From Escherichia coli (GTDB taxonomy: Bacteria; Pseudomonadota; Gammaproteobacteria; Enterobacterales; Enterobacteriaceae): a stretch of DNA of 64,000 bases. Below the pieces are notes generated by a model. It did no database searches and had not been told where the DNA came from. It saw only the letters and a list, made by a program, of their open reading frames with translations. This document shows positions 37,187-41,728 of this stretch, one piece after another; position 1 is the stretch's first letter; each line of letters begins with the position of its first letter. The stretch lies in NCBI RefSeq assembly GCF_003334305.1, contig NZ_QOWS01000003.1. The stretch is one strand, 5' to 3'. A program made the translations under genes and the position numbers.

Positions 37187-37250
37187 TAAACAAAGCGCAC
37201 TTTGCCGACAATCCGAACTGAGCCTGCCATTGGCAGGCTCTGGTGTTCTT

Positions 37251-38594
37251 TTACGCTACCATGCTAATAATCAGCACAATAATCAGCCCAACCACGGAGT
37301 TGACCAGCTCCAGCAGACCCCAGGTTTTCAACGTGTCTTTTACCGACAGGTCAAAGTAACCTTTGAACAACCAGAAAGATGCATCGTTAATGTGGGTGAG
37401 GGTGTTGGAACCCGCAGCCGTCGCCAGCACCAGCAGCGCCGGATTCACGCCAACCAGCTGACCGGTTGCTGGATCAAGGATTGCAGCACTGATAATCCCG
37501 GCGGCGGTCATCGCCGAAACGACACCCTGACCCGTCGCCAGACGAATTAGCACAGTGATCAGCCATGCCATGATGTAGGGCGAGATATTGCCGTGGGACA
37601 TCAACATGCCGATGGTGTCGCCAATGCCGGTGTCGATGATAGTTTGCTTCAGCACGCCACCCGCACCGATGATCAGAATCACCATTGCAATGCTTTTCAC
37701 CGCACTTTCAAAAGCGTTCATCACCCACTGCATGTCATGACCACGTGCGGTGCCAAAGAGTACGAATGCAACCACCATCGCAATAAACATTGCAATCGGC
37801 GAGGAACCGATAAAGTTAACCACTTCCCAGGCAGGGGTATCTTTTACCAGCCAGATATTGGCGATGGTGGTAGAGATCATAATGATCGCCGGGATCAGCG
37901 GCACCAGAATCGAAACGCCGAAAGAGGGCAGATTGTTCATATCTACCGGTTGATCTGCTTTCAGGAATGATGGCGTTGGGCGCTCAAGATTGCCGAGGAA
38001 CTTCGGCAGGATCAGACCTGCGCAGATTACACTTGGGATCGTCACCAGTACGCCATAGATATAAACCATCCCCATATCTGCGCCATAAGCATTCACCAGC
38101 GCCACCGGACCCGGCTGCGGTGGGAACAGTGAATGTGCGGTAGTGGCAGCTGCTACTGCCGGGATCGCCAGTTTCAGGAACGGAATTTTAGCTTCGGCGG
38201 CAATAACAATAACCAGCGGCGCTAACATGATAAAGGCCACTTCATAGAACATCGCCAGACCAAAAATCAGGCCGATGATAATCACTGACAGCTGTACATA
38301 GCGCAGACCGAGACGCGCCAGCAGCGTATGCGCTATCTGGTGAGCCGCGCCGGAGTCGACCATCAATTTACCGATGACCGCACCGAACACCACGATGATA
38401 GCCAGTTCCCCCAGCGTGTTGCCGAAGCCCGCTTTCATGGTGTGCAGCAGCGACATCAAATCCATGCCCGCCAGCATCCCGACGGACAGCGCCGCCACCA
38501 ACAAAGCCACCATTGAATTGATTTTGAACTTCAAATTCAGTACCAGCATCAGACCAATGCCGAATACCACCCAGAGAATGTTAAGCACATGCAT
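37251..38594 (-). CDS. gntP: Gluconate/fructuronate transporter (GntP family)
   Basis: 447-aa polytopic membrane protein starting [23 protein letters not shown]; matches remembered GntP. Confidence 0.93.
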
Positions 38595-38647
38595 AACGTT
38601 TTACCTTACCTGGTTGAACCGTTGTTATTTTGGGCGACATGTTATGC

Positions 38648-38663
38648 AAATTGGTCAACCATT
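38648..38663. promoter_or_regulatory. Putative UxuR/ExuR operator (gntP side)
   Basis: AAATTGGTCAACCATT, a near-palindrome of the TTGGT..ACCAA type in the gntP-uxuA divergent region. Confidence 0.4.
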
Positions 38664-38710
38664 GTTGCGATGAATGTCACATCCTCTGATCAATAACCAT
38701 CGATTACCCT

Positions 38711-38729
38711 TTGCTGCAATTTGCAGCAA
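38711..38729. promoter_or_regulatory. Perfect 9-1-9 palindrome in the uxuA upstream region
   Basis: TTGCTGCAA t TTGCAGCAA; a probable regulator-binding site whose identity is unknown. Confidence 0.3.
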
Positions 38730-38754
38730 CAACCATGAGAGTGAAATTCTTGTG

Positions 38755-38772
38755 ATGTGGTTAACCAATTTC
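38755..38772. promoter_or_regulatory. Putative UxuR/ExuR operator (uxuA side)
   Basis: Palindrome TGGTTAACCA inside gtggttaaccaatttc, about 165 nt upstream of uxuA, with a TTGACA hexamer just downstream (38783-38788). Confidence 0.45.
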
Positions 38773-38933
38773 AGAATTCGGGTTGACATGTCTTACCAAA
38801 AGGTAGAACTTATACGCCATCTCATCCGATGCAACGCCACGGCTGCGGTCTGGTTGTTCATCCGGATACCTAAACAACTCCAGGGTTCCGCGTCTCTTTG
38901 CTGTGGAACCCACTATGTGAAAGAGGAAAAATC

Positions 38934-40118
38934 ATGGAACAGACCTGGCGCTGGTACGGCCCAAACGATCCGGTTTCTTTAGCTGATGTCCGTCAGGCGG
39001 GCGCAACTGGCGTGGTTACCGCGCTGCACCATATCCCGAACGGCGAAGTATGGTCCGTAGAAGAGATCCTCAAACGCAAGGCGATCGTTGAAGACGCAGG
39101 CCTGGTGTGGTCTGTCGTAGAAAGCGTACCAATTCACGAAGATATCAAAACCCACACTGGCAACTATGAGCAGTGGATCGCTAACTATCAGCAGACTCTG
39201 CGCAACCTGGCGCAGTGCGGCATTCGCACCGTGTGCTACAACTTCATGCCGGTGCTCGACTGGACCCGTACTGACCTCGAATACGTGCTGCCAGACGGCT
39301 CCAAAGCTCTGCGCTTCGACCAGATCGAATTCGCTGCATTCGAAATGCATATCCTGAAACGTCCAGGCGCGGAAGCGGATTACACCGAAGAAGAAATTGC
39401 TCAGGCTGCTGTTCGCTTCGCCACTATGAGCGATGAAGACAAAGCGCGTCTGACGCGTAACATCATTGCCGGTCTGCCGGGCGCGGAAGAAGGGTATACC
39501 CTCGACCAGTTCCGTAAGCACCTGGAGCTGTACAAAGATATCGATAAAGCGAAGCTGCGCGAAAACTTTGCCGTCTTCCTGAAAGCGATTATTCCAGTTG
39601 CTGAAGAAGTTGGCGTGCGTATGGCGGTTCACCCGGACGATCCGCCGCGCCCGATCCTCGGCCTGCCGCGCATTGTTTCCACCATTGAAGATATGCAGTG
39701 GATGGTTGATACCGTAAACAGCATGGCGAACGGTTTCACCATGTGCACCGGTTCCTACGGCGTGCGTGCTGACAACGATCTGGTTGATATGATCAAGCAG
39801 TTCGGTCCGCGTATTTACTTCACCCATCTGCGCTCCACCATGCGTGAAGATAACCCGAAAACCTTCCACGAAGCGGCGCACCTGAACGGTGACGTTGATA
39901 TGTACGAAGTGGTGAAAGCGATTGTTGAAGAAGAACACCGTCGTAAAGCGGAAGGCAAAGAAGACCTGATCCCGATGCGTCCGGACCACGGTCATCAGAT
40001 GCTGGACGACCTGAAGAAGAAAACCAACCCAGGTTACTCCGCAATTGGTCGTCTGAAAGGCCTGGCCGAAGTTCGCGGTGTCGAACTGGCGATCCAGCGC
40101 GCTTTCTTTAGCCGTTAA
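38934..40118 (+). CDS. uxuA: D-mannonate dehydratase
   Basis: [40 protein letters not shown] ... (394 aa). Confidence 0.95.
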
Positions 40119-41683: not shown

Positions 41684-41728
41684 CTGGTCAATCAAACTGA
41701 TATTTGGTTGACCAGTTTTCGTTTTTTT
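41684..41728 (+). terminator. Rho-independent terminator after uxuB
   Basis: Stem ctggtcaa / ttgaccag (41684-41715) followed by tttt cg ttttttt. Confidence 0.7.

Follow-up and report, generated by a model that had tools for sequence, protein, structure and literature searches.

A probably fortuitous 19-bp palindrome between the UxuR/ExuR-type operators of the divergent gntP–uxuAB control region of Escherichia coli

Organization of the gntP–uxuA Spacer

The 339-bp spacer analyzed here (38595–38933) is located within a stretch of 64,000 nucleotides of Escherichia coli DNA (referred to below as the window) and forms the gap between gntP, on the minus strand, and uxuA, on the plus strand (Table 1). 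It is found in 5405 of 5426 complete E. coli genomes, positioned between gntP and uxuA-uxuB-uxuR. The locus is the divergent gntP/uxuAB control region of E. coli, which is already known, and its UxuR/ExuR operators and CRP dependence are textbook E. coli regulation. An initial annotation of the DNA had described a divergent gntP–uxuA control region harboring three palindromes; the gene context was right, and all three palindromes were located where it had placed them.

Relative to K-12 MG1655, whose coordinates are obtained by adding 4512702 to those of the window, the spacer shows two base differences, at 38638 and 38647, where the window has C and K-12 has T. Position 38647 adjoins the first operator (op1), close to the predicted gntP −10 hexamer, and is T in nearly all other E. 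coli-like sequences; the window strain carries the minority allele at this position.

Table 1. Genes, operators, CRP sites and predicted promoter elements at the gntP–uxuA locus.
Feature	Position in the window	Position in K-12	Strand	Sequence	Remark
gntP	37251–38594		−		
gntP −10 hexamer (predicted)	38639–38644		−	TAACAT	from sequence and the −41.5 geometry to CRP site 1
op1, UxuR/ExuR-type operator	38648–38663	4551350–65		AAATTGGTCAACCATT	over the predicted gntP core promoter
CRP site 1	38666–38681 (center 38673.5)			TGCGAtgaatgTCACA	one mismatch to TGTGA-N6-TCACA
Perfect 9-1-9 palindrome (19-mer)	38711–38729	4551413–31		TTGCTGCAA-T-TTGCAGCAA	variable spacer between the promoters
CRP-like site 2	38751–38766 (center 38758.5)			TGTGAtgtggtTAACC	two mismatches to consensus; overlaps op2
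op2, UxuR/ExuR-type operator	38755–38772	4551457–74		ATGTGGTTAACCAATTTC	just upstream of the uxuA −35
uxuA −35 (predicted)	38783–38788		+	TTGACA	GGTTGACA at a fixed distance from op2 across genera
uxuA	38934–40118		+		
Third UxuR-type box	41702–41717			ATTTGGTTGACCAGTT	between uxuB and uxuR, upstream of uxuR; two mismatches

UxuR/ExuR-Type Operators

The two outer palindromes, op1 and op2, are both TGGT-NN-ACCA boxes and fit the inverted repeat AAATTGGT-NN-ACCAATTT; op2 contains the perfect core TGGTTAACCA (38758–67). They agree at 14 (op1) and 13 (op2) of 18 positions with AAATTGGTATACCAATTT, a UxuR site that is functional in a synthetic promoter and is used in a working UxuR biosensor (PMC8092373). 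A search of the 64 kb with AATTGGTNNACCAATT, allowing up to two mismatches, identified four matches against 0.35 expected, a number attained in none of 100 shuffles, and three of the four are positioned in uxu regulatory DNA, namely op1, op2 and the third box at 41702–17, which is an autoregulatory site of the uxu system. Similar UxuR-type boxes were identified upstream of uidA and uidR in K-12. Across 80 uxuA loci, each from one genome per species, the density of ATTGGTNNACCAAT (two or fewer mismatches) is 1.75 per kb over the 350 bp preceding uxuA and 0.01 per kb inside the gene, an upstream enrichment of approximately 175-fold.

Genomic SELEX with purified UxuR produced a single peak in the genome, at the gntP/uxuA spacer, in which two sites were noted; the resolution of this peak is coarser than a base pair, and binding was lowered by glucuronate (PMC5934670). 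When E. coli, E. albertii and four Citrobacter genomes carrying the gntP<>uxuA divergon are aligned, both operator cores are invariant. Op1 is unchanged across Escherichia and Citrobacter except for its central base, the TGGTTAACCAATT of op2 is invariant in seven genera, and the module TGTGA-T-TTGGTTAACCAATT-N9-GGTTGACA is kept as far as Erwinia. The motif match, the SELEX peak, the conservation across genera and the regulon-wide enrichment together bear out the UxuR/ExuR class to which the initial annotation had referred both TGGT..ACCA boxes, and op1 and op2 can be regarded as members of the UxuR/ExuR (GntR/FadR-family) operator class. They show the same TGGT-NN-ACCA repeat and AATT flanks as the operators of the hexuronate regulon (uxuR, uidA, uidR, uxuAB, and gntP) and, as in that regulon, are positioned in the promoters of hexuronate genes under a UxuR SELEX peak, with no difference in this respect.

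A fourth TGGT..ACC-like box, TGGTTGAACCG with a 3-nt center, was observed at 38611–38621 and has the Citrobacter version TGGTTGAACCA. It is positioned in the predicted 5′UTR of gntP, where it immediately precedes the ribosome-binding site at a distance of 41.5 bp from op1, and is only moderately conserved, with 4 of 11 positions variable among Escherichia lineages. At the uxaC<>exuT spacer of K-12 (locus L204, 6743–7224), no box meeting the strict UxuR pattern was found, and the dyads there resemble TTGTATGACAA and GTTATCACACCAAT; the ExuR-controlled promoter at this spacer appears, from these dyads, to use a diverged version of the motif. Since the ExuR boxes of uxaC/exuT fail the strict pattern, this locus is uninformative on operator spacing.

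CRP Sites and Predicted Promoters

Each operator adjoins one CRP-like site. CRP site 1 is among just three one-mismatch matches to the consensus in the 64 kb, is kept in Citrobacter, and is identical to TGCGATGAATGTCACA, the site predicted by MEME under a CRP ChIP-seq peak at gntP/uxuA in ETEC H10407 (PMC4287617). The TGTGA half of CRP-like site 2 is conserved from Escherichia to Erwinia, and CRP SELEX likewise detected multiple CRP sites at gntP–uxuAB (PMC3105977). The initial annotation had recognized the operators, and this part stands, but these two flanking CRP-like sites and the operator spacing of approximately 105 bp were absent from it.

The −10 hexamer listed in Table 1 would place the gntP start near 38632, in a class II promoter with CRP site 1 at −41.5 and op1 from −16 to −31; on the other side, CRP site 2 and op2 would lie approximately 60 bp upstream of the predicted uxuA start. 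A consensus promoter scan of the spacer found nothing above threshold, including the predicted gntP −10. Compared with CRP class II and class I sites, the predicted arrangement consists of TGCGA-N6-TCACA at approximately −41.5 (gntP) and TGTGA-N6-TAACC at approximately −60 (uxuA), but site 2 is weak and overlaps op2.

Operator Spacing and a Putative Repression Loop

A distance of 105 bp, or about 10 turns of the helix, separates the centers of op1 and op2; the corresponding boxes lie 104–105 bp apart in Citrobacter and 106 bp apart in E. albertii and the Escherichia lineage L002. Operator pairs 102–106 bp apart were identified in Escherichia, Citrobacter, Enterobacter sp. R1, Cedecea, Enterobacter sp. 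Ag1 and two Erwinia species (window 38648–38772 and loci L004–L007, L009, L010, L012, L039, and L043), with the partner box positioned upstream in some genera and downstream in others. In all of these except Escherichia and Citrobacter, gntP is absent upstream of uxuA, and the op2-equivalent box is accompanied by a second box 102–105 bp downstream, in the uxuA leader. The approximately 70 bp between the CRP sites are unalignable between E. coli and Citrobacter, yet are of nearly equal length, with a difference of at most 2 bp. Because two arrangements share a spacing of about 10 turns, and because length is kept while sequence is free, the spacing suggests that UxuR/ExuR bind op1 and op2 cooperatively or by looping and may thereby form a repression loop. 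The loops of lac O1-O3, gal OE-OI, ara O2-I1 and deo likewise involve two operators, one repressor and integral helical turns, and the sequence between op1 and op2 varies while its length stays, as in those systems; by comparison with them, however, a loop of 105 bp would be short, and looping by UxuR/ExuR is proposed from the spacing alone. The conserved spacing of approximately 104 bp, with free sequence, leads to a testable prediction, namely that UxuR/ExuR repress by cooperative two-site binding.

These features can be combined into a putative switch. Without fructuronate or glucuronate, the repressor would sit on both op1 and op2, whose 105-bp center distance probably permits cooperative binding or looping. 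Occupied op1, lying over the predicted gntP core promoter, would shut RNA polymerase out at gntP, and occupied op2, lying over CRP site 2, would block the CRP-dependent activation of uxuA. An inducer would then free the repressor, after which cAMP-CRP would turn on both promoters. The 19-bp palindrome would lie in the spacer of the putative loop, which is constrained in length and unconstrained in sequence, and would probably have no regulatory role itself.

In the divergent Escherichia lineages L002 (3400–3700) and L150, gntP is absent, and the start of nanM is, by eye, directly upstream of the uxuA spacer, which implies that nanC, the fim cluster and gntP were lost. Both lineages retain op1 and CRP site 1 despite the loss of gntP, a hint that these two elements also serve uxuA. 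Upstream of uxuA in Providencia vermicola (L014, 3835–3855), a perfect 21-bp palindrome, GGTTAACCAAATTGGTTAACC, consists of two UxuR-type half-box pairs 11 bp apart, an arrangement that differs from the pairs separated by approximately 104 bp.

Sequence and Conservation of the Central Palindrome

The 9-1-9 palindrome reported between the operators by the initial annotation is real, with all nine arm positions paired around a 1-nt spacer. Each arm, TTGC(T/A)GCAA, is itself a 4-1-4 palindrome, and the 19-mer can equally be read as a 10-bp tandem direct repeat of TTGCNGCAA; its perfect symmetry is less surprising because the arms are self-complementary and form a tandem repeat. Under a first-order Markov model, 64 kb should contain approximately 1.3 perfect palindromes whose arms are 9 or longer and whose spacer is 3 or shorter (probability of at least one, 0.72), and the window holds two, the 19-mer and the palindrome between fimH and gntP (37220–40). 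The probability of such a palindrome within the 339-bp spacer alone is 0.0065. Over the whole window the 19-mer is not improbable, and it is notable for its location only. When perfect palindromes were counted over 794 kb of enterobacterial loci, 49 loci were obtained, many of which have a high G+C content with a T-run behind them and are apparently terminators; this count was not used as a base rate, the sample being biased to the 3′ ends of uxuA and the ORF classifier being crude.

Neither the four Citrobacter genomes nor additional Citrobacter-like haplotypes from metagenomes contain the 19-mer. E. albertii has the version TTGTTGCAA-T-TTGCAGCAA, in which 8 of 9 pairs and 18 of 19 bases are kept, and 5–7 of 9 arm pairs are found in the Escherichia lineages L002, L150, L165 and L170, whose uxuA genes are 95–98% identical to that of the window. 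The paired positions 38714 and 38726 have changed to C/A, C/T, T/G and T/T, never to a complementary pair, and no compensatory change was found in the 19-mer across the non-coli Escherichia lineages. Among the divergent Escherichia lineages, 6 of the 19 positions are variable (32%). The proportion is 26% in the whole spacer, 3–14% across operators, CRP sites and the core promoter, and 62% (31/50) in the flanks immediately adjoining the 19-mer. The difference from the flanks (6/19 versus 31/50; Fisher p = 0.03, uncorrected, with lineages that are not independent) is the only hint of constraint in the comparison. Among 100 E. coli-like metagenomic loci, representing 46 haplotypes, the 19-mer shows three singleton variants and no common SNP, which is uninformative for a stretch of 19 bp.

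Searches for a second copy covered several data sets. No relative of the 19-mer at three or fewer mismatches was found elsewhere in the window, no similar site was found upstream of uxuA in 724 kb of related loci from 80 species, and none was found at four or fewer mismatches in the 12-kb uxaCA-exuT-exuR locus. The half-sites TTGCNGCAA and TGCAANTTGCA show no enrichment in the window.

Possible Functions of the Central Palindrome

These observations can be compared with a reading in which the 19-mer is the operator of a dimeric transcription factor, either Escherichia-specific or recently recruited, and, placed at about −88 and −100 with respect to the predicted starts, adds to the control of gntP and/or uxuAB as a third input. 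Its perfect 9-1-9 symmetry is the geometry of Fur or TetR-type operators, its occurrence within the spacer by chance is improbable (the P of 0.0065 given above), and the retention of 18 bases in E. albertii, the lower variability than in the flanks and the lack of common polymorphism in E. coli all count in favor of a binding site; the most decayed versions, moreover, are those of the gntP-less lineages L002 (five changes) and L150 (four changes). Against this stand the absence of conservation in Citrobacter despite the shared divergon, the lack of perfect symmetry or compensatory changes outside E. coli, the failure to find a second copy or relative in the sequence examined, and the lack of a match to any motif compared. 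No site on the 19-mer is present in the ChIP-exo tables of a study of uncharacterized transcription factors (y-TFs; PMC8464067), and the UxuR SELEX study and the literature name only UxuR, ExuR, CRP and, on our reading, GntR. On this balance, an operator of a dimeric factor is unlikely. A narrower version, in which an E. coli regulator or architectural protein yet to be assigned binds the 19-mer as an operator of recent origin inside the putative UxuR/ExuR loop of approximately 105 bp, is quite unlikely; if true, fructuronate uptake (gntP) and mannonate catabolism (uxuAB) would receive a third input that is specific to E. coli.

UidR/GusR was considered as the factor and rejected: among the inverted repeats in the two stretches upstream of uidA and uidR, which include UxuR-type boxes as well as other dyads, none resembles the 19-mer. 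The 19-mer differs from the UxuR/ExuR operators in having GC/GC where GT/AC is needed and in having its dyad centered on a single base, and it shares the 9-1-9 geometry of the Fur box and tetO without a sequence match. The spacing or key bases of Cra, CytR, NsrR, Fur, FNR, NtrC, AtoC, LysR T-N11-A, lux/tra box and Fis sites likewise appear not to fit it.

In the same ChIP-exo tables, the unrelated factors YdcN, YqhC and YedW share one site of 12 bp with low signal in the spacer, in four rows, and a treR site recurs as the adjacent row in two of those lists (PMC8464067). The recurrent 12-bp site looks like a non-specific hot spot. Its coordinates (K-12 v2 4549516–27), which we assume to refer to U00096.2, would correspond to approximately 38790–38801, inside the uxuA core promoter and, by the same conversion, about 60–90 bp from the 19-mer.

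An architectural role has also been considered, in which the 19-mer would serve as a segment that is flexible or bent by a protein (Fis, HU, or IHF), or as a small cruciform close to the loop apex, and would ease closure. Its center (38720) is 10 bp from the operator midpoint (38710), operator spacing is conserved, and as single-stranded DNA it is predicted to fold at −8.1 kcal/mol (z = −4.8) with an 8-bp stem. The 15-mer GCTGCAATTTGCAGC, in which an A/T core is flanked by G and C at a distance of 14 bp, loosely resembles Fis sites, but the key Fis positions (±3 and ±4) do not fit. Arms of 8–9 bp are short for cruciform extrusion in vivo, and other genera keep the spacing without any such palindrome. 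An architectural role is improbable.

Alternatively, the 19-mer might act at the level of RNA or of the promoter, either by forming a hairpin within an upstream or antisense RNA or by contributing to a secondary promoter. The hexamers TTGCAG and TTGCTG resemble a −35 element, TTGCxG is present on both strands of the 19-mer, and genomic SELEX with the RpoH holoenzyme yielded a peak at the gntP/uxuA spacer with an intensity of 5.0 (PMC5493296). No convincing sigma-32 promoter was seen in the spacer by eye, and a reading of the sequence revealed no acceptable −10 at 16–18 bp from either hexamer. A scan found no promoter-like or terminator-like site, there is no Rfam match at E ≤ 1 and no U-tract, and the 19-mer is positioned upstream of both predicted starts. 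A role of this kind is highly improbable.

A site for a known regulator, whether an NtrC/LuxO-type enhancer-binding protein, Cra or CytR, has some resemblance in its favor. The outer GCTG...CAGC of the 19-mer resembles the GCTGAAnnnTTCAGC-like ends of Cra sites, TGCAA/TTGCA are CytR half-sites, and the 19-mer is located between two CRP sites. Cra and CytR, both of the LacI family, have even-spaced sites centered on a CG step, whereas the dyad of the 19-mer is centered on a single base. In CytR promoters the CRP sites are 52–53 bp apart; here they are 85 bp apart. E. coli is not known to have a LuxO. In the searchable bacterial literature, the 19-mer and its parts gave no result other than a resemblance to the Vibrio LuxO site, 11 of whose 13 bases are matched by the core cTGCAATTTGCAg of the 19-mer (PMC10328515). 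The LuxO site (TTGCAW3TGCAA) is alike in its 9-1-9 geometry and TGCA-N3-TGCA core but, unlike it, the 19-mer lacks conservation and recurrence in a regulon, and there is no sigma-54 promoter in the spacer: the sole match to TGGCAC-N5-TTGCW has three mismatches, lacks the GG and occurs at chance frequency. A sigma-54/enhancer-binding-protein reading was rejected on this ground. None of these regulons is known to be linked to hexuronates, and a known regulator of this group is very improbable.

The preferred interpretation is that the 19-mer is probably a fortuitous symmetry specific to the E. coli lineage. By comparison across genomes, it lies in the least constrained part of the spacer, is specific to E. 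coli and is unsupported as a binding site. The existence of the third palindrome and the remark in the initial annotation that its binding factor is not obvious are both upheld, but the role as a third control element is not: conservation of the 19-mer ends with E. coli, no further copy was seen in the sequence examined, and none of the motifs compared fits it. The full account, a known UxuR/ExuR and CRP switch region with a fortuitous 19-bp palindrome inside a putative loop, has in our estimate a probability of roughly 0.6. The 19-mer is a clean case of a promoter-region palindrome with perfect symmetry against which comparative data argue.

Other Predicted Structures at the Locus

The Escherichia uxuA leader (approximately 38840–38925) contains about 78 nt that are absent from Citrobacter, and hairpins are predicted in the leader at 38824–38867 and 38883–38911 (GGGTTCC...GGAACCC). 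The fold of the leader is not significant (z = −1.7) and has no Rfam match, and an RNA element was rejected as a candidate. Between the convergent fimH and gntP genes, the perfect 10-1-10 G+C-rich palindrome GAGCCTGCCAtTGGCAGGCTC (37220–37240) is probably a bidirectional terminator.
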